A DNA stretch of 64,000 nt from Marsupella aquatica (taxonomy: Eukaryota; Plantae; Marchantiophyta): contig OZ316892.1 in the NCBI GenBank assembly GCA_973895155.1, forward strand, positions 22,235,168 to 22,299,167, given 5' to 3'. This document shows positions 27,502 to 64,000 of this stretch, piece after piece. The position numbers were made by a program, and so were the translations under genes. The stretch's first letter is position 1; each line of letters begins with the position of its first letter. The notes below the pieces were generated by a model that was not told the origin of the DNA, made no database searches, and saw nothing but the letters and a program-made list of their open reading frames with translations.

Positions 27502-28207
27502 CTTTGAGGGCTTGTCGATCCCCGACGTCTCCTCGACGCCCATAGGTTGAACCGCTCACGCTTGTGGTGTACCGGCCACTCCGCCGGTCTGAGTCAGCGT
27601 GCGTCAGTGGCCGCTTCCTTAAGTTCGTTATACGGACCCGAGGGAGGGGCCCCTCCACGCTCGTAACCCGGGTGTGCGAATAGCGACCCGCCGCCAGCCC
27701 GAACCTGAAGTCGCCCTTATTGCCTAATGATGTCCTACCCCTAATGATTACCTAAATACTGTCGTTATGCTAATAATAGCGGCCTAAGACCCACCTAACG
27801 CGCGTGCCAAGCGCAGTTTAGACTGAATCACTCATTAACCGCCGTACCGGCGGCGTCACATTTAGTATCGGACGGCTGAGCTCTTGCAATATCGGAGCAT
27901 CGGAAAAATGCTAAAAATGTACTAGTGTAAGTAGATCCTATCCAACAAATGGAGCATGATGAATTCTTTAGATTTGGTCTCTCAGTTGCTCTATTAGTGA
28001 TGCATGTAGTTATTCCCTCAAGCGTTATCTCATCCATATGTAGTTTTTGTAACTGTCCTTTCCGAACTTGCTCGGTTTGACTGTGATCCTAGTATGGAAT
28101 AATCACGGTCAAACCAAGCTAGTATTTCTAGAAGTTAGAAGCACTAGTGACAATTGAACTCTGATATTCCCACTGCTGATTGAAGTGCATTGTTTGCGGG
28201 ATTTCAG

Positions 28208-37913: not shown

Positions 37914-38834
37914 TGTGGTGCGTCCCATGGCTCCCTAAACCCAAGAAACCCCCCAGCTCAAGCCGATTCCCGCAGGTTTCGTGCTTGGCGAGGCCGTTTC
38001 CGCGGCTTAGCGGCATGGGACGCTGCTAACCTTCTACTACTACTATTAACATTTTACACACATATACTGGACAGATCCTTCATCGGGTCATGAGATACGT
38101 AGCCGGCCTAATATAGGCCTTCCCCTGTCTTCCCCTGTCTTCCCCTCCGTCTTGTTAGGTATGTTTGGATTCCGCCGCCGGAATGATCCCCAATAGGCTT
38201 GGTTAAGCCGCTAAGACCTCTCTCAGCTCGACACATCCAACTCTCACTCCCCTGCTTACTTTCCTTCCTTCTGTTGATGTGGGCACTCTTCACACAAGTT
38301 AATGCGACACACAAATAGCAAAATGACTCATTCTGACTGAGTCATACCATGCACTTGCCATACAAACAGTACATCTCATACACAAGTTCTGCGAACTAAG
38401 CCGTGAGGCCAACTCTATTCAGCTCTTAGGCATGAGGAAACATGAATATACACAAGGGTCACTGTATGACTAACCGAGAGCTTCTCGTACTACTTGATCC
38501 CAGCCCGGCTGGTGCAAACTAAAAACTTGCTAAAGAAGAGGCCCTGAGCTCCCCGCTGCCCAGGTACTTATCCTGGTAGTGGATCCGCCATTCTTTGCAT
38601 CGTAAGCCTAATCTACTTAACAGTAATCTACTTGCCCGAATCTACCTATGTACAGCAAGGCAGGAGCACAAGTGTTGCTCCTACCAGTGGGACCGCAATC
38701 CCACTAAGCTAAGTGTCAGGGCCGCTCCTGGTTCTGATCCTAATCCTAAACGTGGAGATCCGCGCCCGCCCTGCCCACTCACGCCTCCTCCCTCCACGTC
38801 CGCCTTCCCTAAAAGGAACGGCGCCCTTGCACCG

Positions 38835-42521: not shown

Positions 42522-42585
42522 TATACTAAGGTGTTCCTAGGGTGCCTTCCTGCTTTACCCACTTAACCGGCCGAGTGATTCCTAT

Positions 42586-45500: not shown

Positions 45501-45852
45501 TCATACCTCCATAAACTGGGATCTCGGCTGGACTAGCCGAGTCGGTCCCTTCCTTGGTGTCCATAGATTGTCCCCTTACCGGTCTATTCGGTTTTGAATT
45601 AGTGGTCGGCTCCCCTTCCTGCCTTGGCTCTAGATCGTGTCTGTCCATCTCATCCACCTCTTGCTCCTGAGAGTTAGGCCGCTGTGCTCTCTCGGCTTCT
45701 AATAGGGCCTCAATTTGTTCTGCCCTCGTAATCGGCTTGTATGCCGATCCCTTGGTATTTAATTCCTTGCCGATGATCGATGGCGTTGTGGACCCCGTCG
45801 GCTCTGCCACAACGCCTGCAGAAAATCCACTGTCCCTGCTACTGCTCCCCAC
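42586..45852 (-). CDS. pol: Pol: reverse transcriptase, RNase H, integrase
   Basis: RT motifs DYRKLN, MPFGLCNAP and FIDDF; RNase H VDVS..YSTTEREAL; integrase HHCC zinc finger, WGIDYIGP, SDRGTHF and YHPKANGLTER. The stop codon lies inside the 3' LTR. Confidence 0.97.
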   Translation of the reverse strand: MGSSSRDSGFSAGVVAEPTGSTTPSIIGKELNTKGSAYKPITRAEQIEALLEAERAQRPNSQEQEVDEMDRHDLEPRQEGEPTTNSKPNRPVRGQSMDTKEGTDSASPAEIPVYGGMRLERLEAELDPNLKKQINMIQARQYRKLDLGEGRELNLGRNLAPELEKEISDLLIEFQDVFAWSHQDLKGVDPTLGEHRIDLMLGAKSFRQPIRRMNPKYSLLVKTEIDKLVEAGFITPVLHSDWVSPIVIVPKKAGPDGKPKIRVCQDYRKLNEATLKDHFPLPFTDMVLDMVASHELYSFMDGYSGYNQIRIRQEDQIKTAFITEWGIYVFNRMPFGLCNAPAMFQRLMVNIFHDYLRKFMEIFIDDFAVFGKASKHAKYLRKTFMRCREVGLKLHPDKCFFAVTEGVLLGHKVSRKGIEIDKGKLAVWLDIMQPKNIKDVRSFLGCIGYYRRFIKDFAKLALPLTNMLKAGADFEPTPERVTAVVELKQMLVEAPVMIAPDWNKDFHVFVDVSGFCIGSVLSQLDEKGRDHPIYFASRQLADAERNYSTTEREALGVIYSCKKFRHYLLGYKVIFHTDHESLKYLVNKPDLTGRVARWILLLQEFDYELRIKPGKLHANADFFSRITGKPATDCIDDRFPDEELFVVEIASTWYPEILQFLSTSRLQPGLSREQAAVFVRKVRQYQCIKGILHKHGINGTIQRCLEKREVKRVLRAMHGEEAGGHFAPVTTSKKILNAGYWWPTLHKDVYQFIKQCDPCQRAGGPRASTRHPLHPILPLAPFEKWGIDYIGPLKPLTHPRRNKYIILATDYATKWVEARPTTKDDAITTARFMYEQIFTRYGASLELVSDRGTHFLNDIISRLIEQYLVKHRPTTPYHPKANGLTERANGIIGKILNKTVAQNKLDWDDKLFAAVFAYNLAYKSTTGHTPFFLTFGQEALVPMQLEIPTFQVTIEERASAEESLKEREYRLEALEEARMISAERVEYRQNIMKQQYDKRLKVVSIHTGDLVLLYDSRYSRFPGKLYTRWLGPFRVTMMFPNGSVQLANITGEVYPVHIHYDRLKKYYMDEDEVVREDASQLSGELCDA
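42600..42611 (-). other. Polypurine tract (TAAGTGGGGAGC)
   Basis: Purine-rich tract 2 nt before the 3' LTR in element orientation. Confidence 0.75.
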
Positions 45853-48560
45853 TTAGCCGTTTCATCCAATTGGTCTACATCCTTTACTTCCTCCGGAATT
45901 TCAGCTAAAAAGGTGGATTCTATTGTAAAGCAGTCCTCGACCTCTTCGTCTTCTTCTTCCAAGTCACCTTCCATTGGTTCTTGCCATAATCCGCTGGGGG
46001 GTACCTCTGGTCCAAAGACACCTTCTTCGGTTAGGTTAGTGAGGCATTCTAACCAACGTACTTCATCGGCTGACTCCAGTCCACTATCGTACCCATCTAC
46101 TTCCCTTATGCTTTTCCTACGGTCATCCTTAGTGTCCCAGGATACCGTGATAGAGGGGGTCCCGAAAGTGAACTGCTTTTTACCCCAATCTTCTATTACC
46201 TCGGCTAGGTACAGCCATGGCCTACCAATCAATAGCCGGAATGATGTAGGATTTACCGGCTTCATTACTACATAGTTAATGCTAAAGAAGATACCTCCTA
46301 TCTCTGTCTTGATGCCGGTTAACACTCCCGTCGGAATGACCTGATATCCATTGGCCATGTTCAACACTCTTCCAGTCATCTCCGGTGTTAGACCCCACCC
46401 TTTTGCTGTTGAATCAATCATAATACATACCCCTGATCCTCCATCGATGGGTACCCGTAGTAATAATTCTCCTTGAATCATTAATGGTAATGCTGGGGCT
46501 CCTTGATCTTCTTCTATCATTAGTACGTCGGATCTGGTTGCTACCTTGGGTAATCTCGGCTTGCCGAGAATAGCCTTCCTTAATTGCTTCCGGAAGTACG
46601 GGCTATTTTTCAATAGTTGACCTACTGTTGCCGAGACTCTAGATTCTAGTACATCTTTAGCCAGGTCATAGGGAACAATCGGCTTCTCTTCTGGTGGTGT
46701 TTCCGTCTTGGATTCGGCCAGTTTTGCCACGCTAGTCTCCACAGCTGTTGGGTCTTCCGAAGCAAACAATGCTTTTGCTCGTTTTACATCCTTGGCAATG
46801 GCTTCGGTATTCTCCAGGGTTTCTAATTCTCTTAGTTGTTCCTTAACACTAGCCGTAACAGAGGGGTAGAACAACTTAGGATGATCTCGATTGAAGTCGC
46901 TATCTTGTGAAGGATTGGTTTCACTGGTGGGCTCATGGCTTACCTGTATTGCCGGAGCCCTCCTTTCTCCTTCTGTTGATGTTGACGAAGAGTCGATCCT
47001 TTCCTCCGTAACCTTCCCTTTATTTTTGGCCAGCCCATCCCACCTTTCCTTCCTTCTGGTAGATCGAGTAGAGACCCGGTAGCAATCATGATCTAAATCC
47101 TCCTCTGAGAAGGTTGATAGGGCTTCGGCCTCATCATCAGATGGTACGAACTCTGCCTCGGCATCCTCTTGCCATCCTAGTTCGATGTGGTTGATTTGAA
47201 CTCCTCCGGGGGTAGTACCTGGCGGTAAGATCTTGATCGGCAAAAGCTTATGATTTGCGGCCAGGCCTGCCAACCAAGTAGGACATTGCCCTAGCATATG
47301 ACCTTCCTGTCGGCATCCCATACATAGCTGAGCTGGTTGTCCATCACCCTGTTTGCGTGCATTCGGGCATTCTCTAGCAAAATGGCCAGGTTGACCACGA
47401 TTATAGCACGCCGCAAATCTTTGCACATTCGGCCTAGGAGGTACTGACGGGTTCTGAATAATCCGAGGATACATCTCTCCTGGATTGTTCCTTAACCCTG
47501 ACCACAGAGATGCAGGTCTGTTGGATAGGTCTCGTGCTCCAGTCTCACTGATGCCGAAAACACTATCAGCGGCATCTCCCAAAAAGTACTCTACTTCTCC
47601 CTGACATGGTCTGATCTCGGCCACATGCCGAACATGATTAGTATTAAGCTTAGGACACGCATCTTTATGGTGTCCGGTTTTATAACATAAGGCACACCAT
47701 ACAGAGCTATCCTCCTGTACTACCTTCTTCTTTGGTTTTACCTCTGCAATGATAGCCTTAAGTTGCTCGGTAAGGGCTACGATGTTATCTGGTGGCTTAG
47801 CCTCCATCTTGACTTTCGTCTTCCCTCTCCTTCTGCCCTTCCTTTTCCTAGTTTTTTCTTCTTCAGAACTAGAAGATGACTCACTCTTGCTACTCCCACT
47901 ATCCGAGCTTGACTTATCACTTCTAGACTTCTTGGAATGTTTCTTCTTCTTATCTTTTTTCTTATGGGGTGATCCCTCCTCTGATGAGGAACTCTCAGAC
48001 TTAAGCTGTTTCTTCCGGCTTGTGATATCTGCATTAATGTATAATTGAATATCCTTAATTGCTTCGGCTAAAGTCTCCGGGTTCTCCTTCCTAATTGCAA
48101 AACTCATCTTCTGTGGCAAAGCATTCACTAACCATTGAAGTTGCATACCTTCAGATGCATTGGTCTTTGTACGTCTTACCAGTTTCTAAAAGCGTTGCAA
48201 GAACTTCCTGAAGGATTTGTTCTCCTTGAACCGAAGTTGTCCCAACTTCAGCACTGCTAGTTCTGAAGTTCCAATGGGTCGAAACTCCTTAACAAAGAGT
48301 GTTTTGAAGATATCCCAGATGGCTTGATCTTCCACATCTAATGCTCTGTACCAAGGCCTAGCCTCACCCTTGAACAGGCCGGGAAGAATCTGCATCTTGA
48401 TGGCCGATTCTCCATTTGCTGCAGCGGTTCCCTCGAAATCATCCAACCATTCGTCCGGATCCTCATCTCCTCTCCCATGAAATGCCTTGTAATGTATGCG
48501 TGACCGCTGGCTCAATCTGGTCCCTGGCCTCTCGTCTGGCCGTGCCTCTGGTTCCCCCAT
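45759..48560 (-). pseudogene. gag: Gag-protease ORF with one in-frame stop (48186-48188)
   Basis: Capsid-like segment (FHGRGDEDPDEWL..EARPWY); three CCHC knuckles (one with C>R); protease IDGGSG. ORFs 48186-48560 and 45759-48146 share one frame. A possible upstream ATG at 48743 is followed by two stops. Confidence 0.9.
45769..45828 (-). promoter_or_regulatory. Putative programmed -1 ribosomal frameshift signal
   Basis: G GAT TTT heptamer in the gag-PR frame (45828-45822), 5-nt spacer, perfect 10-bp stem GGCGTTGTGG/CCACAACGCC. The loop GCCGA can pair with downstream TCGGC. Pol is in the -1 frame. Confidence 0.75.
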
Positions 48561-48765
48561 GTCGGTTGGAGACTCACTTCTCCTTACCGACTCTTCTTCT
48601 GGTATGTCTTCTTCGACGCCACTTCCAGTTTCGGAGCTACCAGCTCTTTCTGCCCCTCTCAGTCGCTGTGTATCATGCCACCCGGCGAGCTGCTTCCCTC
48701 GGCGTAAGGTCAGTCATTACCTACGCTTCCGTTCTAACTTCATATCTCACGGCTTAAGAAATGCC

Positions 48766-48782
48766 CCCTCCATCTAGCGCCA
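48766..48782 (-). other. Primer-binding site, tRNA-Asn type
   Basis: TGGCGCTAGATGGAGGG 4 nt after the 5' LTR; complementary, with one mismatch, to the plant tRNA-Asn(GTT) 3' end CCCTCCTTCTAGCGCCA (tRNA sequence recalled, not searched). Confidence 0.8.
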
Positions 48783-48786
48783 AAAA

Positions 48787-51700
48787 TGTGGTGCGTCCCA
48801 TGGCTCCCTAAACCCAAGAAACCCCCCAGCTCAAGCCGATTCCCGCAGGTTTCGTGCTTGGCGAGGCCGTTTCCGCGGCTTAGCGGCATGGGACGCTGCT
48901 AACCTTCTACTACTACTATTAACATTTTATACACATATACTGGACAGATCCTTCATCGGGTCATGAGATACGTAGCCGGCCTAATATAGGCCTTCCCCTG
49001 TCTTCCCCTGTCTTCCCCTCCGTCTTGTTAGGTATGTTTGGATTCCGCCGCCGGAATGATCCCCAATAGGCTTGGTTAAGCCGCTAAGACCTCTCTCAGC
49101 TCGACACATCCAACTCTCACTCCCCTGCTTACTTTCCTTCCTTCTGTTGATGTGGGCACTCTTCACACAAGTTAATGCGACACACAAATAGCAAAATGAC
49201 TCATTCTGACTGAGTCATACCATGCACTTGCCATACAAACAGTACATCTCATACACAAGTTCTGCGAACTAAGCCGTGAGGCCAACTCTATTCAGCTCTT
49301 AGGCATGAGGAAACATGAATATACACAAGGGTCACTGTATGACTAACCGAGAGCTTCTCGTACTACTTGATCCCAGCCCGGCTGGTGCAAACTAAAAACT
49401 TGCTAAAGAAGAGGCCCTGAGCTCCCCGCTGCCCAGGTACTTATCCTGGTAGTGGATCCGCCATTCTTTGCATCGTAAGCCTAATCTACTTAACAGTAAT
49501 CTACTTGCCCGAATCTACCTATGTACAGCAAGGCAGGAGCACAAGTGTTGCTCCTACCAGTGGGACCGCAATCCCACTAAGCTAAGTGTCAGGGCCGCTC
49601 CTGGTTCTGATCCTAATCCTAAACGTGGAGATCCGCGCCCGCCCTGCCCACTCACGCCTCCTCCCTCCACGTCCGCCCTCCCTAAAAGGAACGGTGCCCT
49701 TGCACCGTCACGACACCGGTGGTGGATCCTCAATGGACGCCCCCAACACTTCCTCCTCAGCCACTGCCGTTGGCCCGCCTATTGACAGATTACCTGCCCT
49801 TGACCGAGTCAACTCTCCATCGGCCTGATTGGGTCCACCTTCGGCTTCAGCCTCGACACCGGCCTCGGCAATACCCACGGCTTCGGCCTCAGCCACTCCC
49901 ACGGCTTCGGCTTCAGCCACTCCCTCGGCTTCGGCCTCAGCCACCCCCACGGCTTCGGCCTCCCCTTCCCCTAGGGTAGTTGGATCCTTAGCCGTGACCC
50001 TGTCTGGGGTCGGTGCTGGGTCTACCTCCTTGATCACCACGGCCTGTGAAGTCGTATTACTCCTTGACCCTGGAGGTTTCCGCTTCTTCTTCGTTGGTGG
50101 CTCGGCAGCTCGTCCCTTCCCCTTCCCACTTACTTCCGGCACTGGTGCAGTTGACGCGGCTTGTCCTTCGGCAATTACCACCCCTGGTAACTGGTTTGTC
50201 CCAACGGGAGATGGACCTGCTGCAGCTAAGCATTTAAATACTGCGGCTTGTTTCTTCAGCCGCTCTGTTTGGTTGTCGGCCCGCCGCTGTAGGTTCTCCA
50301 TCTTCCTCGTGATTTCCTCCAACTCCTCTTGGGTTTCATCCAGGTCCTTACGTGCCCCCTCCAGCTCGTTTTTGGCCTCCTCCTGCTCCCTGTGGGCTTC
50401 CTCCAATTCCTTCTTCAAGGTAGCCCTCTCCTCCTGGGTTGCTCTTAGCTCCTTGTCGAGCTCTGCAATGATGACAGACTCCATCTGGTTCATCTTGGCG
50501 TAAGTCTGTTCGAGCATCTCATCCTTCTCCCTTAGGTCGGCCTTGAAGCTGGCCGTCAGGGACGCAAGCTCCTGCTGCAGCGCCATAATCCCTTGATAGG
50601 ATTTCCCTAACTCGACCTCCTTCTGCTCAAGGGCTCCGCGGATTTTCTCGAGCTCCCCTTTCAACGCCCATTCCTTTCTTTGGGTCTCCGCCATGGCCCG
50701 GCTGTTGGCTGTTATGTGGGCCTCCTCTGTATTCTTCAGCTCTTGCTTCCACTTTTCCCTCTCTTTGATCGTGTCGGCCAACTCTTCCTGCGTCTGAGTC
50801 AGTTTATCCTTGATATTCTGATTATCAGCCTGCGCGGCGTCCAACTGCCCCTGCATGATGTTCAGCTCATGTTGTTTAATCCGCAGTTCATCTTGGGCTT
50901 TCTTGGCCGCCCTTAGATCTTCAATCTCGGCTCCCATCCTCCTAAGCCGCCGAATGACCTCGTCCTTCTTGCTTCTCTCTAAAGCCACCGCTTCTTCTAA
51001 TTGGTGCTTCTCCAACTGCTCCCTATGGAAAAAGGGTCCTATCTCCAACTCCTCTCCAAAGATGCCGAGCGCAAGTTCCCCACACATCTCACCATACTCC
51101 ATGGCTCTATTCTTAGCGTAGGTGGAGTAAGTAGAAGTGATCGGCATCGCCCATCGTGGCCTCTGCTCCCAAGCCGTCCTGCGGATCTCTTCAATCGTGG
51201 CTAGAGGTTTGCTTCCTTTTTCGGCTAGCCGCCTGATGTCCTCCGGCCAATCTCCTCCTGGTAAATCCTTTTCCTTAGCCAGGGCGGCCTCTTCCTCCTG
51301 CTTGATTCGCTCCTGAAATTCCTGCACCGTCTGTTTTATGCCGTCGAAGCTCGGGGGAGCAACATCTGGTGGGGGAGACTCAGGGCTACTCTGCTGGTTG
51401 GGGTCCCCTCGCACTACCCTTGGAAGTGTGGGGACAAACCGGCCACAGGTCCTTACTCCTGGAACGTGATGGTCCGACCCATAGCCGGAATTATCATGGC
51501 TGCAGTCCTCCACTGCCTCCTCTACCTCTTGGACGTCCGGCTTCTCCCTCTCCTCTTCGTCGGTAGGAGCTTCAGGCAATTCTGCCTCAGATTCGGAGCT
51601 TGAGGTTCCCACGTACATTCGAACACCTGGCTTGGATTCCGGCCTGATTCTCTCCTTGTCTCCAGCAAAGGGGTTTTCTCTTGTGAGCCGGTGTAGGCCT

Positions 51701-53470
51701 ACCTCTGTAGTAGTGTCCTGCATTGTTGCCGTTGCCGTTGTTGTTGCCGATGCCGATTTCTTTTCTTTCTCCAGTAGTTTCAGCAGACTCTGCATGCCTG
51801 GTTGCTGCATCGGCAAGTCTTCCTTCCTGGGCCTAAACACCTGCTCGATCGTAGGACTAACAGGTGGTTGAGGCTTCTCAGCCAACGGCCTCGGCGTTGG
51901 AGCTTCCTCGGGTGCCCTTACCTGCAGGGGAAGTACCGGGGCAAAAGTCTGACCTCTGGCATACCGGCACAACAGCGGCATGTGATAGCCAAGCCGCGAC
52001 ACGCTCCCCATGCCGATTACCTGCTGCTCCTCCTTTAAGATCTTCTTCAATTGGTTGAGGAGGTACCCGTTGTAGTCCCGGCTTGGGTCTGGCCTTTCTG
52101 CCAGATAGACCTGTGCCTTGCCGATCTCTGCCCTCGGCAAGTTACAATGCATGGTCACCCGCAAGAAGTCGATCATCTCTCCTATGTGCGGGTTGGTGCA
52201 GGTGTTCCGGAAGAAGCCATTCTTCGTTGATGGCCCGGGGAACGACCGGAACTCCTTGTCAGGCAAGGTCTTCCTGGTATCAACTTTGGTCTTATTGCCT
52301 ATCGGCAGGCCAAACACTTCGGCAATTACCTTGGGAGTAAGATAGAAATCCCTCCCATATATCCTCGTGCAATTGGTCTCGGGTTCCCATGACCCCACGA
52401 ATTCTAATAGGTCTGACTCCGGTACCTCCGGCTTCAGCCATGGTAATCTTACAAAGGCCTCCAAGCCGGATCCGGCCATGAAGCCTTGGTACTTCTTGGT
52501 CTGCATGGCCGTAAAGCATGCATCCTCCTCCCGTGCAAAATGTAGTTGCACCTCCACCGGTAGGGTTGCCGCCCAGCCCTTCCAGGTGTCATCCCTGGTT
52601 GGAATGGCCTTGATGGGATCGACCTCCTCCTCTTCGGCTTCTCCCTGCCTCCTGCTCTGCTGCTCGGCTGGCTTCTTTGGTGCCGCCGACCTCGTTCTTT
52701 TTGCCGGGGTGGCTTCATCGTTGACGGCTCCCTTCCTCTTCATCTCTGCTGCCGTGGAGGTTTCTCCTAGCACCGTTGCCTGGGTCCACCTTTCCGTGCT
52801 ACCCTTTAATTCCCAGTGTATGTCGTTGCAGTTCTTGATGGCCTCTCGGATGCCGACGACGCTGTCTTTGCAAAACAGAAGATCGTCGAGTTGATTGGAA
52901 GTAGGCGTCCACAGGAACTCGTCCTTGATGAGTTCGCCTCCTAAGAAAGCCGTCTTCTGCAGCTCCCACAATCGAGCGAGCTCCTGCCGTTCTCGAGTTG
53001 CCCTTTCTGACTCCTCGTCCTCGTAAGTCTTGATGTACTCAGTTGCCCGTTCGAACAGGCATCCCCAGAAATGTGCCGCTTGATTGACGTTGCTCATACC
53101 CTCCTTAGGTCGATCGTCGGTATCTACTCTCTCCCCGAGTGCTTGCCTAAGCAGCTGACAGTAGTTGGCCTCCCGTAGTCGTCTGCCTAGTTCGTGCTCG
53201 CAAATGAGCCACCATCTCCTGCAAGCGCTCCTTACCCCTCTCCTCTGCCGGTCCTTCTTCCCGTTGATCCTTCCTAGCCGCCGACGCTTAACGCGCCCTA
53301 ACCCTAATCGGGTTTTCACCCTCAGCCTTACCTCCGGCCTCTGCCCGGGTTCCATGGTTGCCCCTAATTGTTTATATTTTCCTTGTTTTGTCACTATACT
53401 AAGGTGTTCCTAGGGTGCCTTCCTGCTTTACCCACTTAACCGGCCGAGTGATTCCTGTCTAGGCATCACA
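48787..53470 (-). repeat. 5' LTR (4,684 bp)
   Basis: Direct repeat of 37914-42597, adjacent to the PBS. Confidence 0.97.
49708..53394 (-). CDS. Second intact copy of the 1228-codon LTR-internal ORF
   Basis: Same length as 38835-42521, with 14 aa differences. Confidence 0.9.
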   Translation of the reverse strand: MTKQGKYKQLGATMEPGQRPEVRLRVKTRLGLGRVKRRRLGRINGKKDRQRRGVRSACRRWWLICEHELGRRLREANYCQLLRQALGERVDTDDRPKEGMSNVNQAAHFWGCLFERATEYIKTYEDEESERATRERQELARLWELQKTAFLGGELIKDEFLWTPTSNQLDDLLFCKDSVVGIREAIKNCNDIHWELKGSTERWTQATVLGETSTAAEMKRKGAVNDEATPAKRTRSAAPKKPAEQQSRRQGEAEEEEVDPIKAIPTRDDTWKGWAATLPVEVQLHFAREEDACFTAMQTKKYQGFMAGSGLEAFVRLPWLKPEVPESDLLEFVGSWEPETNCTRIYGRDFYLTPKVIAEVFGLPIGNKTKVDTRKTLPDKEFRSFPGPSTKNGFFRNTCTNPHIGEMIDFLRVTMHCNLPRAEIGKAQVYLAERPDPSRDYNGYLLNQLKKILKEEQQVIGMGSVSRLGYHMPLLCRYARGQTFAPVLPLQVRAPEEAPTPRPLAEKPQPPVSPTIEQVFRPRKEDLPMQQPGMQSLLKLLEKEKKSASATTTATATMQDTTTEVGLHRLTRENPFAGDKERIRPESKPGVRMYVGTSSSESEAELPEAPTDEEEREKPDVQEVEEAVEDCSHDNSGYGSDHHVPGVRTCGRFVPTLPRVVRGDPNQQSSPESPPPDVAPPSFDGIKQTVQEFQERIKQEEEAALAKEKDLPGGDWPEDIRRLAEKGSKPLATIEEIRRTAWEQRPRWAMPITSTYSTYAKNRAMEYGEMCGELALGIFGEELEIGPFFHREQLEKHQLEEAVALERSKKDEVIRRLRRMGAEIEDLRAAKKAQDELRIKQHELNIMQGQLDAAQADNQNIKDKLTQTQEELADTIKEREKWKQELKNTEEAHITANSRAMAETQRKEWALKGELEKIRGALEQKEVELGKSYQGIMALQQELASLTASFKADLREKDEMLEQTYAKMNQMESVIIAELDKELRATQEERATLKKELEEAHREQEEAKNELEGARKDLDETQEELEEITRKMENLQRRADNQTERLKKQAAVFKCLAAAGPSPVGTNQLPGVVIAEGQAASTAPVPEVSGKGKGRAAEPPTKKKRKPPGSRSNTTSQAVVIKEVDPAPTPDRVTAKDPTTLGEGEAEAVGVAEAEAEGVAEAEAVGVAEAEAVGIAEAGVEAEAEGGPNQADGELTRSRAGNLSIGGPTAVAEEEVLGASIEDPPPVS

Positions 53471-53475
53471 TCCAC

Positions 53476-54015
53476 TGAGGAACAGACACCGTTGCCATGA
53501 CGGTGGTGGAGGGCCGCTCCTTTCAAGGAGGGCGGACGTGGAGGGAGGAGGCGTGAGTGGGCAGGGCAGGCTCAGATCTCTAAGTTTAGGATTAGGATCA
53601 GGACCAGGAGGCGGCCCTGACACTTAGCTTTGTGGGATTGCGATTCCACTGGTAAGAGCAACACTTGTACTTCTGCCTCGCTGTACATAGGTAGATTTAG
53701 TTAGGTAGATTAGGCTTACGCTACAAGGAATTAGGCGGATCCACTACCAGGATAAGTACCTGGGCAGCGGGGAGCTCAGGGCCTCTTCTTTAGCAAGTTT
53801 TTAGTTGCACCAGCCGGGCTGGGATCAAGTAGTAAGAAAAGCTCTCGGTTAGTCATACAGTGACCCTTGTGTATATTCATGTTTCCTCATGCCTAAGAGC
53901 TGAATAGAGTTGGCCTCACAGCTTAGTTTGCAGAGCTTGTGTATGAGATGTACTGTTTGTATGGCAAGTGCATGGTATGACTCAGTCAGAAGGAGTCATT
54001 TTGCTATTTGTGTGT
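53476..54015 (+). mobile_element. 3' remainder of LTR copy C2, truncated ~400 bp before the LTR end
   Basis: Continues C2 after the TSD; matches the reverse complement of ~38310-38860; similarity stops after GCTATTTGTGTGT. Confidence 0.85.
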
Positions 54016-56733
54016 TGTGCGCCCCCTTAAAGGTGTCACACAGGGTTGTTAGTTAATTTTTGAGCTTATTAAGACTTATAGTTACCTCTTTCTATGTAAT
54101 TTCAGTGTAGTTTAAGGCTTTAGGCCTTGGTCAACTTTGAACCTAGAAGATCAAGTGAAAAGTTAATAGTGATAGTTTTAAGGTAGAGTAGCATTTTATG
54201 ATATTTTAATCAAATCTTTGTAGGTCATGAAAAACTCTCAAATTTTGATGAGTAGATAGATTTTAGATAGAGAAATCTACCCAAGAAAATATCAGACAAA
54301 ACGGACATGTCGTTAGGAACTTAGAGTCATTTTTTTTTTGCATATTAACACTTTGGTTCTTTGACACTTAGAATAGTTTTCTGTTTTTACAACTTTATAC
54401 TAAATTAGCATCTTTGGGTATTTTATTGGTAGACTTAGATTAGTCCAAAAAGTCTGAGTTTTTGTCAGGTAATAGATTATAGGTAGAGGAAACGCATTGG
54501 CAAAATTTCAGCACAAACGGAGTTCAGGTTAGATTTTTAAAAATCACAAGAAATAGGTGTCTAGTAGTTTTGCCACAAAATCACTAGGCCGCTAAGCCGT
54601 TTGGCCGTTTTGTTACGAGTTAACCAGGGGGGTACTCATGAGTGAAAAGAGGGGTACTCCTAAAGATGGTACTCTCATGTGGATGAGGGTAGTCAAAAGA
54701 AGAGGAAAGAAGAGGTAGATGAATCAAAGGAGTAAAGAAAGAAATAGGAAATTACTTAGTTGGTGATAAGATTGATTGAGATACGGAGTTAGGTAGGAGT
54801 GAAGACTCCATCAACAATTGATTGATGAGATATGGTGGATTAGGTGATCATCAGTTGCAAGAAATGAAGTGAAGCAATCGTGGCCTGGAAAGACAAGTCG
54901 AATTGGAGAGATAATGTCGAATCACAAGTTGTCGAAGTCAAAATCGCGGAAAACTCGTGGTAAGAAAAATCAGCGACACCAAATATTTTGTGGAGCCACA
55001 TTCGCTTGACCAAATTGGCTGATATTTTTTGTGGAGGTAGAAGGGAAGTAGGCGCACCTTCTGGAAAATTATGAGCACCAACCGAGGTCTGGTTGGTGAG
55101 AGAAAAATCAGATGCCGGAGGGGGGTCTGCAGCTTCCAACTTTTCTGCGCGAAATTCGATTCTATGATTTGAAGCACATGGACGAGGATTGAATGGAAGT
55201 AGGAGCTTGATTAGGAGCTAGTAAGAAAGGGGAACACTCAGCCCATGGTGAGGATTGGATTGGAGTGGATTGGAGTGGCTGAAAAGTATTTAAGGATTGT
55301 AGTTTCTTGTGTGGAGGGACAGATGCTTGGTTGCTTAGTGAAAACTTCATCCACATGGAGTGGAAACTAAGATCCACAAACATTTGATCCCATAATTGGA
55401 TAGTTGTAGAGAAGTGAGGAGAAGGACCCTGGATAGAGGTTCTATTTCTACCAGGAAAATTTATGATGTTACATAAAGTCTCTTTTTCTTGCATCATTCT
55501 TTGCTATGACTCCAATTCTGTAGTTGGCATGAGAACTAAGCTTTAGAAGGATTGAGTACCTGGATGTTACCTTGTACCCAATCTAATTGATTTTCTTGGA
55601 GGTTCAGTGAGGAGAGAATATTGTGTTGTGATTTCAGGTTTTCCCTGGTTCGGGCAATATACCTGGGCAGCATATTGGCGATTCCTTATGATGCTTTGGT
55701 GTCTCTAGCTGTGGACTTTTGGCAAAACGATTATAGATTTTCCCTGGTCGTTGTGTTTGGAACACTTTAGTAAATCTGAAAGTGCAACCTTCTCACCATG
55801 TGTGGTTTGCTGTCCTGATTTGGCTGTTTTGTTGGCCGGAGTTAGTAGACACCCCCAGGAGTGACAATCTGAATCTTCAGAGCTGGGAAGTGACAAGAAG
55901 TACTGATCTGGTCAAGGGCTACTGAAACTTGGGTGCTTGAGATTGGGTTGCAATCAGGTACAATGGGCTCAGCCCCTAGTTTTGTTTCGCAAACCAATTG
56001 ATGGTAGGAGGAGCTGATGTGACCCCAGCAACATGGTTTGTTCCAGTGAGCTTTTAGCAGGGTGATTTCTTACAGGTTTTCCCTGGTCACCTTGTGTAAA
56101 GAACTTTAGTAAATTTGGCACTCTCATGAGGAGGGGTCCTTGTGGAGAGTTAGGTCTTGTTGTTTTGTCGTTGTAGTCTATTGTTTTGAAGTGGAGAAAA
56201 CTCTCCAGCCTCTTGGAAGATAGAGGTGGGGTTTTGTTTGGTTTCTAAAAGGTTCGTTCATCCGTCTTCCGCTTGCGGTCCCACCCTAAGCTATTCCATG
56301 GGAACGAACTGGTAGAGATATCAATATCTTTGCTTGGGTTGTGTGCTACCCGTGAGTTACCCTCCACGACAGTTCCTGCTCTTCTTCAGTCGTCCCACTC
56401 ACGGTAAACTCTCCTGTGCAACCCTGTTATCGTGTCTACTAGATTGCGTTGGTGTTTTGAGGCAGTGAGCGTTTAGGCAACATGTTTTTGTGAGCATTTG
56501 CGACAATGATTTGCCGTGAACGTTGGTGATTCTCTCAGGTTTTTCTCTTGGCTCCCCCTTTTTCTTGATATGTCAAATCCATTTTTAGATGAATCAAATG
56601 TGTGAGAGGCTGGACCCCGCGTATCCTTGAAAACTGGCTCTCTCGGCGGGGCTCGCTGAGATCTTGTCAGGTTTATAGGTTGAGCTATTGCCGAGTAATA
56701 ACTCTTTCATTTCTCATGTAATCTAAGGTCAAA

Positions 56734-59700
56734 ATGCCGAAGAGGAAAGACTTGACTGGAGCTGGACCTGCCGACAGCCAAACTTCTCAGCGGAGTAAGA
56801 AACCACGATCCAAGTCTCCTTCGCCAGTCACGTCTCGACTGACGCGCTCACAGGGTGGTCCACTTATGGAGTCAGTCGACTCCAGGAGGAAGTTTGAGCC
56901 AAAGCAGATATCATTTGAGCCTATTGGAGCGGCGGAATTGGCTGATATTGCTGAGAAGGGAGCCTGGGAGTCTATCGTCTCCAAGTATGAGACAAAGTTT
57001 AGTAAGGATCCGCCCTGGATCCCCTTGTGCCGGCTCATGCCAATGGAGGCAGTGAGGAATCTTCAGGATGAGTCGGTTGCAAAATTAAAAAAAGGATTCA
57101 AAGAGAGCAGCTATGTTGTGAAGCTCAGCGAGTTCCATATTACTGAGTTCAATGAAATTGGAGAAACGCAGACAGTGACAGACTTCAAGCCATTTTGGGA
57201 CCCTTTATGGACTCAGCTCAATGAACAATTTGAGCAAGAGTGCGATGCATCAGAGGAGTTCAAAGTCCTTAAGGACAAGATGTTCTGGGTTTTTGATGGA
57301 AACCACAGATACACAGCCTGGTCCGCAGTTGCTTCTGAGTATCCGGATCAATTGCAATACCATCCGTGCATCAGATTCTCTCTTTTGAACGCTGGGAAGG
57401 ACGGATTCAAGAAGGTTGAGCAAGCAATGCACGCTCTCAACTCGTAAGGACTCTCATTCGCGTCTTTTTGCAAAATGTGATTACCTGTTTGTGTAAACCT
57501 TGTGTGCCATCTTGGAGAGCCTCTCTGAAATTGCCACTATGAGTACTATTTGTCATTTTCAGGATAAGTGCGACTGTCGTGAAGACGTCCTGGTTTAATG
57601 ACGCTGATCGGGTTGCAAAGCTATTGAACACTCCATTGGAGGAGTACAGTTTGCTCATGTCAAAGGAGACAATGGAGGCTTTCATGAAGGCCCGAAATTG
57701 AGGACATGGGAAGACTTGGTACTCGAAGAATATGACAAAATAAGCCGCTGTGTACATCATGTCTTGGTCAAACATTGAAGCGGGACGAATCAATATCTCC
57801 AAGGAGATGGCACAAGATGCACCTCGTGGGCACCCGTGGAGTGTGAAGAGAACTGAGGAGGAGACGGAGGCAATGATTATTGTTGCATGCAAGGCCTGGG
57901 ACAACAAGTTCCCCAAGCTTGCGGCCTGCGTGAATCCGGCCAATCAGTTCATGCCGGTATGTCGGCAGCAGTATCACAAGTTGTCAAAGGACGCCAAGCA
58001 GGGTGTGATGAATGTACAGGTTGGCTTGGACAGGGTCCGCTTGTTTGCTGGGGCTTGGGTAACTGCAGAGTGCAGAGTAAAGCTATTGAAAGCTCATTTT
58101 GGAATGGAGGAGGAGAAGAGTATGTATCACCATCCACGTAGCAATGGTGATGCTGCAATTAGATCCTGGTTAGCAGTCTGGTCAATGTGGTGTTACATTG
58201 ACCACGTTGGTTGTGTGATTTTGACCGATTTTGCTGCAAAGGCCTACCAAAGACAGATGTACCGTGAGTTTTCCGGGACAGAGGAGGAATTTGCAGAGCT
58301 ATACAGAAGGCTTTATCGAGCTTATGTGCAAGAGAAATCACTGAAACTAGGCGGGGAAATTTGGATTGACGGAAAGGCCACGGTCCTGTTAAAAGAATTG
58401 TGGAAAAAGCGAACAAAGAGGTGCGTGACAAGATTTCTAATCAATCAGGAGAACATGAATGCATCCGTATTGAAAGAGCTACCATGGGCACTCACATCTT
58501 GGATGGAGCCGAAAGGGAGCCTTAGCATGTATCCATGTGATGGCCAAATTCCTAATGGCAGAGTAGTCTGCGATTGGGAACGTCAAAACTGCCCATGGTA
58601 TATGGAATACCGTGACTGGAATACTTTTATCGATGACGCTGAGAAGGAGTGTGCAATGAAGCTGAAGGACCAATAGGAGCCTACAAATTACTACGATATA
58701 TCCAAGCTGCGACAATTGACGGACTCTATGCCCCACGCAATAGCGTTGGAGGCCATAATCCCAATGGACCCAGCCTATGATGGGAAAAAGGCCCGAAAGG
58801 AAGGAGGCAAGAAGAAGGTCGACAAGGAACAATCCGTTGAGGCCAGTCAGTCAGATTCTATAAGCACTCCAACAAAGACCCCATCAGGTATTACTCAATT
58901 CCTTTCGAATCAGGTGGTGGCTTGCATTGGAAAAAACCTTGGCTGGGTTGGCGAGGCTCGCCGAGATTAAGTGTCCGGTCCAGTCTAGATGTCGGCGAGG
59001 CTCTCCAAGATTAAGTGTCTGGTCCAGTCCAGATGTCGGCGAGGCTCTCCGAGATTGAGTGTTTGGTCCAGTCCAGATGTCGGCGAGGCTCGCTGAGATG
59101 AAGTATTAGTTGAGTAATAAGTTGCTTGCATATAATGAACCCGATCTTGGCGAGGCTCGCCGAGATGCAGTTGCCATCATGAAGCTCATCAATTTGCATC
59201 CTATGCAGGTCATGCAGAGATCCAAACAGAACCTGGTTCTATCAAGAGCAAGGGTGTAGAGCCGGCTACAAAGGCAGCAGTTGAGGACGGTCCAGGGGTT
59301 TTGCAGGGTCTAGGGCACAAGGATAAACAACCAATAGTTGAGTTGGGTCCAGACGAGGCTCCACTACAAGAATTTGACTTGCCTCCGCATGAGGCTCCTG
59401 AAGTACAAGATGAATTGGCTGACGAGCAGCAAGTTGAGGATGATGTCAGTGGGTGAGCAAGAGGAAGAGGAGCGAGAGGAAGAGGACAAAGGACAATCCG
59501 GAGACAAAGGGCGCTTGTCTGATATCTCTCCTGTGCCTTACCGGCCACCATTACTGTCACGGCAAAAGGAAAAGGCCTTAAAAAGAAAGCAAACTAGGCG
59601 ACCCAGAGCTCCCAAAGGGAGCCCAAGCAAAGCACGTGACGAGGAATTTCCTCCTCTTCCTTCCCCCACTGAGTCGCCTCCCCTGCCCAGCACTGGAGAG

Positions 59701-60820
59701 GTTCCGCCCACAACCATCCAACCTGACCCCACATTGGAAAATGAGGAGGATGAAGAGGCCCTTGGAGAAGAGGATAATACAGAGCTGGAAGGAGTAAGGC
59801 GTCCTTATGCCAATACCATGTCTTCCCAGAGCAGACATATGTATTTTAGGTGGTCTCCAAATCTATTTACAACTTTTTTTGATGCGGCTAAAGAAGGTAC
59901 CGAACCCCCTGTAGTTAGTAAATTGATCTCATGGTGCAGAAAGCTATTGCGGGAAGGTTTGCGTCAAAATTCCTGGAGAAAAGGGGGGAAGCGAGTGAAG
60001 ACTGGTGCAGATTTAATTCTGATACATATGGGAACAGACACGCGTATGGTCGAGGGTAAGTCCACCCCGTTGTGGAATTCGTTCCGGGAGGACGACTTGA
60101 ACCGGGTTTAGGAGTTTGCTCGAGATGTCATTGATTCCGAAGGACTGTTTGCCATCGTGCACAGTGGTTCACTTCGGCACTCAACTTGCATTTATGATGC
60201 ATTAGTTTACGAGAATACCAACTGGGGGTTGAAAGAAAGCTTCTTTATCTGGAACGACACACCCACCTACGATGGTAGGACTGGGAAGCGAGTAAGTCCC
60301 ATCAATTACCTACTTCTTCATTTATTTTTTATTCCAATGACTTACTATCCTAAACTGAGGAAGTCTGACCTCTGAATATGTTTGGCCAATCCAGAGCGAA
60401 TATCTCAAGCTAGACCTATGGGGGTTTCAATCTGCTGTGGAGATATGCCCAAAGGACGATGTGGCACCAACAAACTATACATCCAAGAAGAATCAGGTTA
60501 ACGATCCTTTTGCGGGCACATTGTCGCCAGCAACGCTCCAATGTATCATCGAATATACAACACACCCTGGGGCAACTATCCTCACTTTCAACGCACAGTT
60601 TGGGGCAATATTCAAGGTGGGTGAAAATTGCGGGCGGATGGTGTTTGGGACTGAATCCTATCCTCACTTCGGAACTTGTGCGCAAGACCAACTGGCACAA
60701 CTGGTTGGAGTGATCTCCCCGGAGGAGGAAGAGGTGGTCCGTTCAAAAGCCAATCCAGAAAAGCGCAAGAAGAAAAAGCCGGTAGTACTCCCAACAACAT
60801 GTAATTTTTCTGGCGTTTGA
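56734..60820 (+). pseudogene. Multi-exon gene: ParB/Srx-like N-terminal domain plus a degenerate beta-class N6A/N4C DNA-methyltransferase-like domain
   Basis: FWVFDGNHRYTAW (ParB DGxHR motif); ADLILIH..EFARDVIDSEG..IWND..SEYL..LQCIIEYTTHPGATIL..CGRMVFGTE; GT-AG introns; several stops and one frameshift. Confidence 0.65.
58950..59165 (+). repeat. Intronic ~43-bp tandem repeat with a GGCGAGGCTCGCCGAG core, ~4 copies
   Basis: Directly visible. Confidence 0.85.
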
Positions 60821-61019
60821 CGTTGTTCATTTCATATTTGCTTGCTCGTCGCAATAGTTGACAATAGAGGGATACAAGTCAGCGGCCTCGCTGATATGTA
60901 TGCATGTCGGCTAACCTCGCTGACATTCATAGTGTGTGGCCTCCTCTACAAGCGAGGGCAAGTCCTAACTTGAGATGCATGTTGGCGGACCTCGCCAAGA
61001 TTCATTCCTCTACATGCAA

Positions 61020-61300
61020 CTCAGGAAGAGTCATCTTGGCGGGCCTCTCCAAGATCCGTCTCAGGAAGAGTGATCTTGGCTGGCCTATCCAAGATCCGTC
61101 TCAGGAAGAGTCAATCTCGGCTGGCCTCTTTGAGATCCGTCTCAGGAACAGTCATCTCGGCTAGCCTCTCCGAGATCCGTCTCAGGAAGTCATCTCGGTT
61201 GGCGTCTCCAAGATCTGTCTCAGGAATAGTCAATCTTGGCTGGCCTCTCCGAGATCCGTCTCAGGAAGAGTGATCTCGGCTGGCCTCTCCGAGATCCGTC
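61020..61300 (+). repeat. Intronic ~40-bp tandem repeat (CTCGGCTGGCCTCTCCGAGATCCGTCTCAGGAAGAGTCAT), ~7 copies
   Basis: Directly visible. Confidence 0.9.
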
Positions 61301-61714
61301 GATCCATGTCGACTACCTTCCCCGACAGATGCCTTCTTGTTTACGTCTATTTTGGGCGCAATACATTATTTGATTGGATTTAAGTATAACTTAGTAGCAG
61401 TTCCCGACAGGACTACCGAGTCAGCTACAGCGGAATGGGACAGCCAGGACAGACGGCTTGTCAAGCTCGCGTGGGAGGAAGCTTCGGCATATTTCTCGTC
61501 GGAGAAGTTAACCCTTCCGTGCTACGCTGCTGATACCTATCATGAAGAAATAGTGCCTCGCTGTGTAAAAGAGAGAAAAAGGAAAACTCTCAAATTTGTC
61601 GATGATAGGGCAAAAGAAGCTCAATCGGATGAGAGTAGCTTGGTAGGAAGTGACAGTCTCCAAACTCACCATGTAAGTATAAGATTATCAAGCTCCAGTT
61701 CCAAAGAGTAATGT

Positions 61715-62518
61715 TTGAATGAATTTACCTTCATTGCAGCTCAGGAGAGACCTGAGCAACCAGTGAATGAGGGGCTGACTCCCCGGGCAGGAGTGAAAGA
61801 GGTGGGGCTTGCAAATAAAGGAGTGCCCGCACAACAGCAACCATCCAAATTTTTGGCAATAGTGAAGAAGGCATTGGACCCCAAGGCGGACCAAAAAGAG
61901 GTCATAGTGACAATCGAGGACGTGCACTTGACGAGGGCACATTTAAAATGCTTGAGGCCAAAAAAATGGATCACTTGTGACGTCATCAATGCTTACATTG
62001 CTTTACTGGAACGAAGAGCACAAACCCTTCATAAACCCAAGGCCATGTTATTGCCAAAACATTTTTCCCAAGTGATGACAACTCCGGAATATAACTTCAA
62101 CACAGCATTGGCATATTGGCGGGGCATTCAAATGTGGGAGCACAAGTACGTTTTAATCCCCGTCTACCGGCCAAAACACTGGGTACTAGTTGTGGTTGAT
62201 ACTGCCTTGCGGCAACTGCATTTACTTGATCCGCTTGTGCCCGAAGCACAGGATGGCACAGAAGTGTTCAAAGTAGCTCAGTTTCTTTCGGACCTCTCCA
62301 TCTTGCGGGGTCGTACCTTGTTATGTCCATTAGAATGGCCACGCATTTACCGAGATAACATTCCAGGTCAAGGGGATGATTACAATTGTGGTGTATATAT
62401 CATTATCTACATGGAGCGTATTTTTGGAGGCGGCGTACTGAACTTTGACCCTGCACTTATATACATCATGCGGCAAAAGATTGTCGTGGACCTTGTCTGC
62501 CAGACAATTACCCTGTAG
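61715..62518 (+). CDS. Ulp1-like SUMO protease (peptidase C48) domain exon; acceptor at ~61739
   Basis: LKCLRPKKWITCDVINAYI, HWVLVVVD, LLDPL and QGDDYNCGVY; the catalytic His, Asp and Cys and the oxyanion Gln are all present. Confidence 0.9.
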   Translation: MNEFTFIAAQERPEQPVNEGLTPRAGVKEVGLANKGVPAQQQPSKFLAIVKKALDPKADQKEVIVTIEDVHLTRAHLKCLRPKKWITCDVINAYIALLERRAQTLHKPKAMLLPKHFSQVMTTPEYNFNTALAYWRGIQMWEHKYVLIPVYRPKHWVLVVVDTALRQLHLLDPLVPEAQDGTEVFKVAQFLSDLSILRGRTLLCPLEWPRIYRDNIPGQGDDYNCGVYIIIYMERIFGGGVLNFDPALIYIMRQKIVVDLVCQTITL

Positions 62519-62956
62519 AGAGGATGGAAGATGGAGACGCAGCCTAGTGGAATTTAGTTCAGAAAATTGAGATAGACAACATCGTTGTAAAGTTTGGTAC
62601 AAAGCTTAATAAAAAGTGTGTCATCGAAACGTTCTTAATGTGGCTCCTATTTGATATGCTATGTTGTACACGTTGCTGGGTATGTTTTCATCTTGGCGAG
62701 CTCAGCCGAGATGGAACAACACTCCAAGGATATCTCAGAGAGGGCACCAAGATGGTTAGAAAGGGCACCAAGATGGTCAGAGAGGCAGCCGACATTACTA
62801 ATTGTCCGAACCAAAACAATGTCGGAGTGGACGCCGATATAGGGTTTGACTGTGGGTGTGAATTAAGTCCATGTTGGCGGTGTCGCTGAGTTTTGGGCAC
62901 AGACTGATATCAATGACTGATGAAAGTCACTGATAACTGATGAAGTTGTGTACCCC

Positions 62957-64000
62957 CATTTTAAGGCATTTTACCGATTGTATTTCCATCGGACCCCTTT
63001 AGGAAATCCAACGGGGAAATCTCACCTCTCCGATACCAAAAGAATCACATTTTGTGATGTAATTTGTATCGGAAAACGACAATCAGAAACCAATTGGAAC
63101 TACCAATACTAAAACATTAGGGAGTTCTGTCCTCTAAACTGTTGGGAAATACTATGTCCGATGCCCATTTAATTGGATGTCTATTCCGCACATTTTTTGT
63201 TAACGGAGGCGTCCAATTCTAGACCAATAGTATGGGCATGGAAATGCTCGATTGTTTTGACATCGCAAATGTCCGATTGTTTTTGGAACGGAAATTGCGA
63301 TTACAGTGGAATTGGACTTTGCGATACTTTGGGGATGGAAAAGTACGATGATTGTGGCATTGGATATGGATTGGTATCTATCAGAAACTATTTGGCGAGC
63401 TTGGTTGGGCCAATTTTCAATGGGGGGCTAATTGGGAGTTTAATTGGGGTGCAATTTAATTTTTTAACTGAGTTTTTATTTAGGGTTTAGAGAGGGCATT
63501 TAGTTGATGGATGAGAGACTATCCATTTTGATTGCACACTATGTACCTTAAAACCCAACATGACATGGCGTAACTATATCTTATATACAAAAATGAAATA
63601 TCTAGGGCAAAAGTACAAAAAATGGACATCTCCATGCATAGTGCCAGCTATGCTAAAGGCTGGGCATATCAAATGTACATAATGCCCTCCAACTATCCAC
63701 CTCGCTAGCTTGGTACTAGATCTAAATATGTCTACCTAGTCCACTATCCACACAAGTTATGTCGCGTCTTCCTCTTCTTCACACAGGAACGACTAGGCTG
63801 CTCTGCTCTATGATTGAGTCCGGGATTGAGTCTCTACCGCTGACACACTAGGTAGCACATCATGGTCTTGGCTACTTGATCTGCCTCCATCGTCATGTGG
63901 ATGAGGTGCAGAAGCAATCTCTGGTACTCCCCCACCTCCAGATGTGCCTGAACCATGGGAGGGCACTCCTTCCCCGACACAAGTGTGGAAAGAAGCCCCT
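62957..64000. mobile_element. Left part of another CACTA element related to 12100-27927 (terminal CACTAGTA missing)
   Basis: CATTTTAAGGCATTTTACCGAT..CCATCGGAC matches 12108-12146. TCCGAT/ATCGGA repeats are present. The minus-strand ASFHTC...KKRKTRH (63755-64000) matches the C-terminus of ORF 13158-13697. Confidence 0.7.

Follow-up and report, generated by a model that had tools for sequence, protein, structure and literature searches.

A ParB-like and methylase-like gene with a 23-bp palindrome array in a liverwort repeat: a candidate self-binding accessory gene of a large DNA transposon

The gene described here occupies positions 56734-62518 of a 64,000-nucleotide stretch of the liverwort Marsupella aquatica (assembly GCA_973895155.1, contig OZ316892.1, 22,235,168 to 22,299,167, forward strand), hereafter the window. 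It joins a ParB-type domain to a beta-class amino-methyltransferase-like domain whose catalytic motifs have been replaced, and copies of a 23-bp palindrome lie in its introns and on both sides. That the ParB clamp and the dead methylase form a self-binding accessory gene of a large DNA transposon is a reading just on the probable side, and the predicted docking sites of its protein are the palindromes within and around the gene. The full mechanism, in which an associated protease would remove SUMO from silencing proteins, is drawn by analogy and is tentative, indeed somewhat doubtful as a whole.

The three motifs behind the ParB and methylase assignments of an earlier note on this DNA, DGNHR (57295-57309), HMGT (60025-60036) and TFNAQFG (60584-60604), are all present on the plus strand. 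They fall within six plus-strand exons spanning 56734-62518, whose spliced model measures about 1,520 aa. The plausible GT-AG introns that the note had proposed were found, five in number (119, 321, 103, 600 and 72 nt) and with consistent phases throughout; an acceptor at 61739 looks stronger, but intron 5 is in phase only with the one at 61744. A Calypogeia gene model (P0114) is continuous across the intron 1 junction, where many unspliced gene calls end, and the position of this intron is kept across distant relatives. The intron 3 acceptor is the point at which the similarity of relatives P0008 and P0010 begins. Colinearity with a 1,207-aa Riccia model, P0186 (residues 12-693, E 3e-75; residues 803-1168, E 7e-24), reaches the end of the methylase, and the support for the two junctions leading to the Ulp1 protease consists of phase and donor conservation. 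The features of the locus are as follows.

54041..56639, unstranded: upstream repeated sequence with neither an open reading frame (ORF) nor a recognised terminus; part of the same repeated unit by depth
56640..56662, unstranded: upstream palindrome, 72 bp before the start codon
56734..57443, plus: exon 1; a basic, disordered N-terminus leads into the ParB-CTPase core (IPLCRL..VR, DGNHR, AMHALN), fold via relative P0059
57444..57562, plus: intron 1, 119 nt; one worn palindrome at 57509
57563..58887, plus: exon 2; helical, the first ~200 aa aligning structurally to the ParB helix-turn-helix domain; stops 57699, 57741, 58674
58888..59208, plus: intron 2, 321 nt; 44-bp tandem array with five palindrome copies (58945-59166)
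59209..60291, plus: exon 3; acidic and proline-rich linker, frameshift near 59445, N-terminal half of the methylase with HMGT at motif IV; stop 60109
60292..60394, plus: intron 3, 103 nt; without palindrome
60395..60800, plus: exon 4; C-terminal half of the methylase, TFNAQFG in the place of motif I; relatives are 14 aa longer near 60470
60801..61400, plus: intron 4, 600 nt; 40-bp tandem array with nine palindrome copies (60904-61295)
61401..61672, plus: exon 5 (predicted); linker, no family match
61745..62518, plus: exon 6 (predicted link); Ulp1/SENP peptidase C48 with His 62177, Asp 62228, Gln 62369 and Cys 62387
62690..62712, unstranded: downstream palindrome, after the stop codon
62950..64000, plus: left end of a CACTA/EnSpm element, worn and cut off by the window's edge; matches the intact end at 12108-12157 at 76% (E 5e-6)

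The palindrome array, overlooked in the earlier note, has a two-fold core of 23 bp, ATCTCGGCN-5-NGCCGAGAT, common to the tandem repeats of intron 2 and intron 4, whose periods differ (44 and 40 bp). Seventeen copies were found. Introns 4 and 2 hold nine and five of them, intron 1 and the upstream and downstream flanks hold one each, and there are none in the exons, intron 3 or intron 5. At up to five mismatches, 17 of the 20 matches in the window lie within 56500-62950, and none falls in the 4,576 exon bases among those 6,451; at up to three mismatches, all 11 matches in the window lie in that interval. Simulations give 1.1 and 0.0 expected matches per 64 kb at the two thresholds, and a separate count gave 15 sites against 0.18 strand-matches expected. 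Translations of the palindrome also occur in 17 of 187 collected proteins from six clusters, always within the last 60 residues (0.07 in shuffles). These tails arise where bacterial-style gene calls on relatives run into introns, and P0006 carries the sequence twice in tandem; such traces persist in relatives at 35-52% protein identity. Elsewhere in the window, at 29840-30233, 26-bp and related tandem repeats with inverted symmetry of the GCTTAGCTCAGGTAAGC type are unrelated to the 23-bp palindrome.

Taken alone, the window sequence gives weak signals for ParB and methylase, and it takes relatives to make them clear. A Pfam search of the window exons and relatives gave no ParB match; by Atlas comparison the window ParB domain (56998-57444) scores 0.94-0.96 with ParB-like clusters. 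The model of a Riccia relative, P0059, has a predicted local distance difference test (pLDDT) above 90 over most of the ParB core. Foldseek ranks Noc, ParB and sulfiredoxin first for it at non-significant values (best PDB E 0.32), and against viral models phage ParB proteins lead (best E 0.0019). When structural alignment was used for a second look, the top 13 rows were all ParB, Noc, KorB or PadC (Z 6.5-8.6), the best being 7bm8 (Z 8.6, root-mean-square deviation [rmsd] 4.2, 179 of 180 residues over core and helix-turn-helix); the KorB core aligned with Z 8.0 and rmsd 2.5 over 94 residues. Across 95 aligned ParB-bearing rows the GNHR of DGNHR is kept as G in 90, N in 94, H in 89 and R in 83, and among filled rows an upstream Arg in 80 of 88 and a downstream Asn in 73 of 75. 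These flanking motifs we take to be Box I and Box III, on either side of the GxxR of Box II. Conservation across the family is highest at the nucleotide-binding residues, which suggests a working nucleotide switch. The prokaryote-type ParB domain first proposed from the window is thereby upheld, on relatives, by the ParB, Noc and KorB structural matches and the GNHR conservation.

Truncated ParB chains comprising core and helix-turn-helix align to P0059 residues 146-517 at an rmsd of about 4.2, with Z scores of a kind that can be chance. Because these chains include the helix-turn-helix, the first part of exon 2 is probably a DNA-reading domain. This equivalent after the ParB core had been overlooked, and it is a better candidate for reading DNA than the dead methylase, part of the module to which that role had been assigned. 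In a wide structure search with an 864-aa model, helical-bundle matches at residues 499-603 filled the list. As a separate observation, Atlas look-alikes of the ParB domain include fungal DUF3723 clusters (31% of members, score 0.92); DUF3723 proteins are cargo of giant fungal elements.

For the methylase, the window sequence alone matches PF01555 at E 0.021 and M.RsrI at E 0.03. The model of Riccia P0187, to which both window halves align, matches CcrM at E 3e-9 in Foldseek, and beta-class enzymes head its list of 48 matches at E <= 0.001; it aligns to MboIIA with Z 12.1 and rmsd 3.0 over 146 residues and matches the rotifer N4CMT structure at E 2e-7. P0187 shows a beta-class fold with motif IV before motif I, and the methylase-like domain claimed earlier holds on these fold matches and the kept motif order. 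The motifs themselves are altered. Canonical motif IV, (D/N/S)PP(Y/F/W), occurs in none of 20 family members (19 by alignment, P0063 by eye): it is xMGT-like in the window (HMGT) and 11 relatives, D/E/S-L/I/M-P-T/S in seven relatives, five of them named Riccia, and DVPF in one fern relative. DPFxGxG is likewise absent at motif I, where the window has TFNAQFG and all five close relatives have FNxxxG ([TS]FNA[QH]FG in four, SFNVESG in the fifth). A near-canonical form, DFAGGWG, is confined to Riccia. Within the window's subfamily both motifs are consistently lost. The family searches were seeded with the window sequence, and more canonical members may have been missed. DPFAGT at about 60503 was considered as the S-adenosylmethionine (SAM) motif and rejected: only D.F[AG]GT is conserved, and it aligns to the loop before the motif. 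The graded loss of motifs across the family suggests an active ancestor, and the conservation of the replacement motifs suggests a retained non-catalytic role.

The protease of exon 6 scores above the cut-off for PF02902 (E 3.4e-12) and matches SENP2 at E 1.7e-16. Its triad had been called intact, and His, Asp and Cys, together with the oxyanion Gln, all align to SENP2 catalytic positions. The nearest structures are SENP2 and SENP1, whose WLND is WITC in the window protease, a replacement that may alter substrate choice. Splice phases and donor positions suggest that Ulp1 is likely fused to the ParB-methylase chain in the window gene. No RNA data are recorded among the seven sequencing runs found, which are uninformative on expression. 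A different C-terminal domain is seen in P0108 from Adiantum capillus-veneris, where ParB, middle region and a worn methylase tail are followed by an NIF/FCP1 phosphatase (E 2.4e-12); this is possibly another swapped effector, and it may also be a gene-model artefact.

The window copy carries four premature stops (57699, 57741, 58674 and 60109), matching the several that had been noticed, and a previously unnamed frameshift, a 4-nt excess near 59445; it is unable to make the full protein. Other copies have sense codons at 57741 and 58674 and lack the four extra bases, so that three of the five lesions are seen to be absent elsewhere; at the remaining two stops (57699 and 60109) relatives P0002 and P0038 have Arg and Glu. 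Four sequencing runs, X1-X4, each contain over half of the sampled window words, and among the majority differences C-to-T or G-to-A changes in the window make up 90 of 144 (X1), 96 of 150 (X2), 93 of 146 (X3) and 82 of 125 (X4). This decay pattern, as far as sequence can tell, is the one expected for a methylated, dying repeat, in line with the decayed copy described earlier. Near-identical contigs in X1 have depths of 170-218 over ParB, middle region, methylase, Ulp1 and 63571-64000, against 15-21 for the lowest listed contigs. A near-identical subfamily at about ten times the lowest depths, plus diverged subfamilies, thus extends across 54060-64000, and a Ty3 insertion cuts the repeated unit upstream at about 54040. 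The worn CACTA end begins about 430 bp after the stop codon; an X2 contig reads CACTAGTA before 62957. Because depth near 63300-63512 is similar to that of the gene in X1 and X2, the CACTA end may be fixed in the repeated unit, and it is possibly part of the carrier; farther right, depth is higher in X2 and X3. Placement of the gene inside a long terminal repeat (LTR) was considered and dropped, as no LTR end or primer site was found.

HMMER retrieved 204 proteins at E <= 0.001 among 1.84 billion representatives, of which the best 150 were listed. Relatives occur in liverworts and ferns: the named ones among 30 clusters looked up are Riccia sorocarpa, Calypogeia fissa, Adiantum capillus-veneris and A. 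nelumboides, and no named algal match was among these clusters. In a quick tree of 90 ParB-domain rows, from which 11 middle-only and five short rows were excluded, 34 rows that include Riccia and Calypogeia but no Adiantum form the group (support 96) to which the window belongs; its neighbour is Calypogeia, with weak support (84), and the tree roughly separates named liverwort and fern rows. Together with the named relatives, this placement points to a liverwort as the likely host. A word-indexed search with exon 1 against proteins of 416-2,000 aa yielded none from 1,697 candidates, a limit of its sensitivity, as HMMER later found such proteins. Searches of phages by tblastn with exon 1 and exon 4 gave noise at E >= 1, no relative was found in viral contigs or prokaryote genomes, and a metagenome search returned one short locus, L001. 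In run X5, from a different organism, short diverged matches to the ParB exon (57005-57471) and the middle exon (57939-58405) have depths of 12,453 and 1,957 against under 21 elsewhere, and a highly amplified relative may exist in that organism.

The architecture has precedents. In Ectocarpus, the Sola1-1_Ec32 element encodes a 1,104-aa accessory protein with ParB-like and N4C/N6A methyltransferase domains that is proposed to bind its own element (PMC12477816). The family resembles it in domain make-up, a single large eukaryotic protein (about 1,200 aa by predicted Riccia models) uniting a ParB-like domain with an amino-methyltransferase. It differs in its land-plant host, its replaced catalytic motifs, the Ulp1 probably appended in the window's subfamily and a carrier other than Sola. 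In the red alga Bostrychia, the ParB-like PAG3 of Plavaka (EnSpm/CACTA) elements adjoins tandem inverted repeats and is likewise proposed to be self-binding (bioRxiv 10.1101/2025.02.11.637652); the window gene shares this adjacency and the CACTA-type context. In these Plavaka elements the partner of ParB is a 2OG oxygenase, and a second gene (PAG2) couples the methylase to SET. Here a single chain holds ParB and methylase, and repeats occur within introns as well as on either side of the gene. The VANC proteins of Arabidopsis VANDAL Mutator elements bind short motifs that have multiplied into tandem arrays within introns and elsewhere in the element's non-coding sequence (PMC5735166), and some VANC genes (KAONASHI, KIU) carry Ulp1 (review PMC13317346). 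Both traits have a counterpart in the window gene, the first in pattern of occurrence and the second as a predicted fusion, in contrast to its unrelated DNA-binding domain and its 23-bp palindrome, the VANC motif being 9 bp and non-palindromic; no exon or relative matched the VANC-type Pfam domain. Anti-silencing is proven for VANC and KIU, and for the window family it is a prediction by analogy.

Fusions of ParB with N6/N4 methylases are common in bacteria and phages, and the nucleotide preference of ParB-type proteins is not predictable from sequence (bioRxiv 10.1101/2025.10.10.680097). The window family shares with the bacterial ParB, Noc and KorB clamps the fold of the core, the GxxR motif, a palindromic candidate site and perhaps the fold of the helix-turn-helix region; unlike them it has introns and long insertions, with no ParA seen and no prokaryotic sequence relative found. 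Marchantia MpDN4MT1 and rotifer N4CMT share the eukaryotic beta-class amino-methyltransferase fold, but both are catalytically active enzymes of their hosts; the motif in MpDN4MT1 is TSPPY, and its preprint nowhere uses the word ParB. The window gene is a member neither of the active methylases nor of VANC; by analogy it may work like the algal ParB accessory genes, and like VANC-KIU in its repeats and protease. The ParB-methylase transposon accessory architecture is already published for algae, which lowers the novelty implied earlier; what is new is the land-plant form, with its 23-bp palindrome array. A literature search outside subscription journals found no paper on a land-plant ParB-methylase transposon gene. 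Plant homologues or the repeat sequences may be given in the supplementary material of the two algal papers.

Several points weigh against a self-binding transposon gene. The folds were computed for Riccia relatives 24-29% identical to the window protein, not for that protein itself; no ParB Foldseek match reached E <= 0.001, a Z near 8 lies in the range possible by chance for helical proteins, 11 of 106 rows are misplaced in the ParB family alignment, and the methylase model has a mean pLDDT of 54.6. The palindrome pattern was derived from the window locus, with most copies in two tandem arrays; the peptide patterns, which are indirect evidence, were written after some tails had been seen; and L001, a related DNA locus of 1,053 bp, has no palindrome copy. 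No collected relative carries Ulp1 in the same chain, and the complete Riccia model P0186, made of ParB, middle region and methylase, ends without it, which makes Ulp1, judged from these models, a subfamily add-on. Contig depth is a rough guide to copy number. Within the window no transposase, paired termini or target duplication is tied to the gene, and the worn CACTA end points away from it; the earlier proposal of cargo in a large transposable element is supported by its repeated, transposon-like context, and the element boundaries were not found.

These considerations bear on how many genes there are and what the clamp does. Two adjacent cargo genes of the same element, a ParB-pseudomethylase ending after exon 4 and an unrelated Ulp1 gene, would be a somewhat unlikely arrangement. 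It is favoured by the Riccia models P0186, P0184 and P0187, which stop shortly after the methylase, by the want of Ulp1 in the collected relatives, by an exon 5-6 join that uses the weaker of two adjacent acceptors and by Ulp1 being common transposon cargo (PMC13317346). However, in P0008 and P0009 a donor-like, TGTGAG-coding 'TCEF' is retained where the window has its donor, and divergent contigs read CATGTGAG after 60780, which argues that the gene continues past the methylase in the window's subfamily; the two introns that follow keep the phase, there is no sign of a start or promoter for Ulp1 by itself, and palindromes bracket the whole unit including Ulp1. The single fused gene first envisaged is accordingly backed by splice phase and depth and opposed by P0186 and the other relatives. 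A clamp acting as a KorB-like repressor or spacer of its own element, for autoregulation or end-holding in transposition and not for anti-silencing, is unlikely. KorB and Noc are among the closest folds, one palindrome lies just upstream of the start codon, and KorB regulates genes over long range (bioRxiv 10.1101/2025.10.10.680097); yet the sites are amplified as intronic tandem arrays, like VANC targets (PMC5735166). A SUMO protease would also be easier to reconcile with opening chromatin than with repression.

CACTA elements usually carry subterminal repeats to which TnpA binds, and the pairing of palindrome with ParB is a prediction. The palindromes could be sites of another protein, such as a transposase or TnpA-type factor, or remnants of a small foldback repeat, and be unrelated to ParB. 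This is quite unlikely: the CACTA element at 12100-27927 and the worn end at 62950-64000 have a different repeat, with no palindrome copy at up to four mismatches, and the traces in relatives lie in introns across considerable protein divergence. There is little probability that the methylase is still an enzyme with unusual motifs, marking element DNA or RNA. The replacement motifs are conserved (motif IV Gly in 12 of 12 of the subfamily; the FNAQFG type at motif I), an acidic residue after the next strand is retained, and fern DVPF and Riccia DFAGGWG are near canonical, but D/N/S-P-P-Y/F/W occurs in none of the 20; the subfamily lacks the acidic or amide residue, both prolines and the aromatic, and its SAM loop has Gln in place of the first glycine. 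A domesticated host gene family spread by segmental or tandem duplication is equally improbable. Such a family would fit the missing termini, the kept intron 1 position and the rough split of liverwort and fern rows; against it stand the numerous broken models scattered over several Riccia and Adiantum contigs, the diverged subfamilies in the same runs, the deamination-type decay and a neighbourhood consisting of transposons.

At 12100-27927 of the window lies a complete CACTA element with CACTAG ends and a TAA target duplication, which has a Tnp2 transposase (20208-23383) and just before it a SET-domain ORF (19362-19895; PF00856 E 2.5e-6, above cut-off), a cargo that recalls red-algal PAG2. 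To its left, at about 11795-11940, a RING-finger-like Cys/His pattern (by eye) ends a spliced-looking gene remnant. Two 4-kb solo-LTR-like elements, 97% identical, lie at 5730-9737 and 23823-27860 with target-site duplications (TSDs) ACAAT and TTTAG; each has a long ORF (903 aa in one), forming a second family of ORF-bearing LTRs. A young Ty3 element (37914-53471, TSD TCCAC) has 4,685-bp LTRs 99.6% identical, each holding an intact 1,233-aa coiled-coil ORF, with X1 depth in the tens of thousands. It was inserted into an older copy, on the opposite strand, of its own LTR (32651-37913 and 53472-54040) that contains an internal 1.47-kb duplication.

The mechanism proposed for a self-binding accessory gene begins with the gene, its lesions and its palindromes as read in the window, and with the folds and motif loss of relatives. 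By ParB biology, a dimer would read the two-fold site through its helix-turn-helix part, then close on a nucleotide triphosphate and spread over the element. The dead methylase might be kept as a second grip on DNA or protein, and the protease would strip SUMO from host silencing proteins on the element, a counterpart of the Ulp1-bearing VANC factors. Docking on the palindromes would likely shield the transposon carrier from silencing, a notion put forward before for transposons of algae. A wider and rather unlikely reading is that of an old giant-transposon family in liverworts and ferns, in which a bacterial, ParB-parS-type sliding clamp in the plant nucleus would load on intronic 23-bp palindromes, spread along the transposon and bring a swappable effector that undoes silencing: a methylase, now dead, a SUMO protease in the window and perhaps a phosphatase in ferns. 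With the same low probability, the VANC-KAONASHI strategy would then have been invented a second time, independently and from prokaryotic components.

To our knowledge, VANC proteins are the only ones known to recognise and unsilence their own transposon. A ParB clamp, if true, would bring a ready-made mechanism for spreading over the whole element. In plants related to model liverworts, this family supplies a specific 23-bp candidate site, traces of which recur in distant relatives, and a nuclear ParB-parS pair with a protease could serve as a compact tool for targeting chromatin changes.

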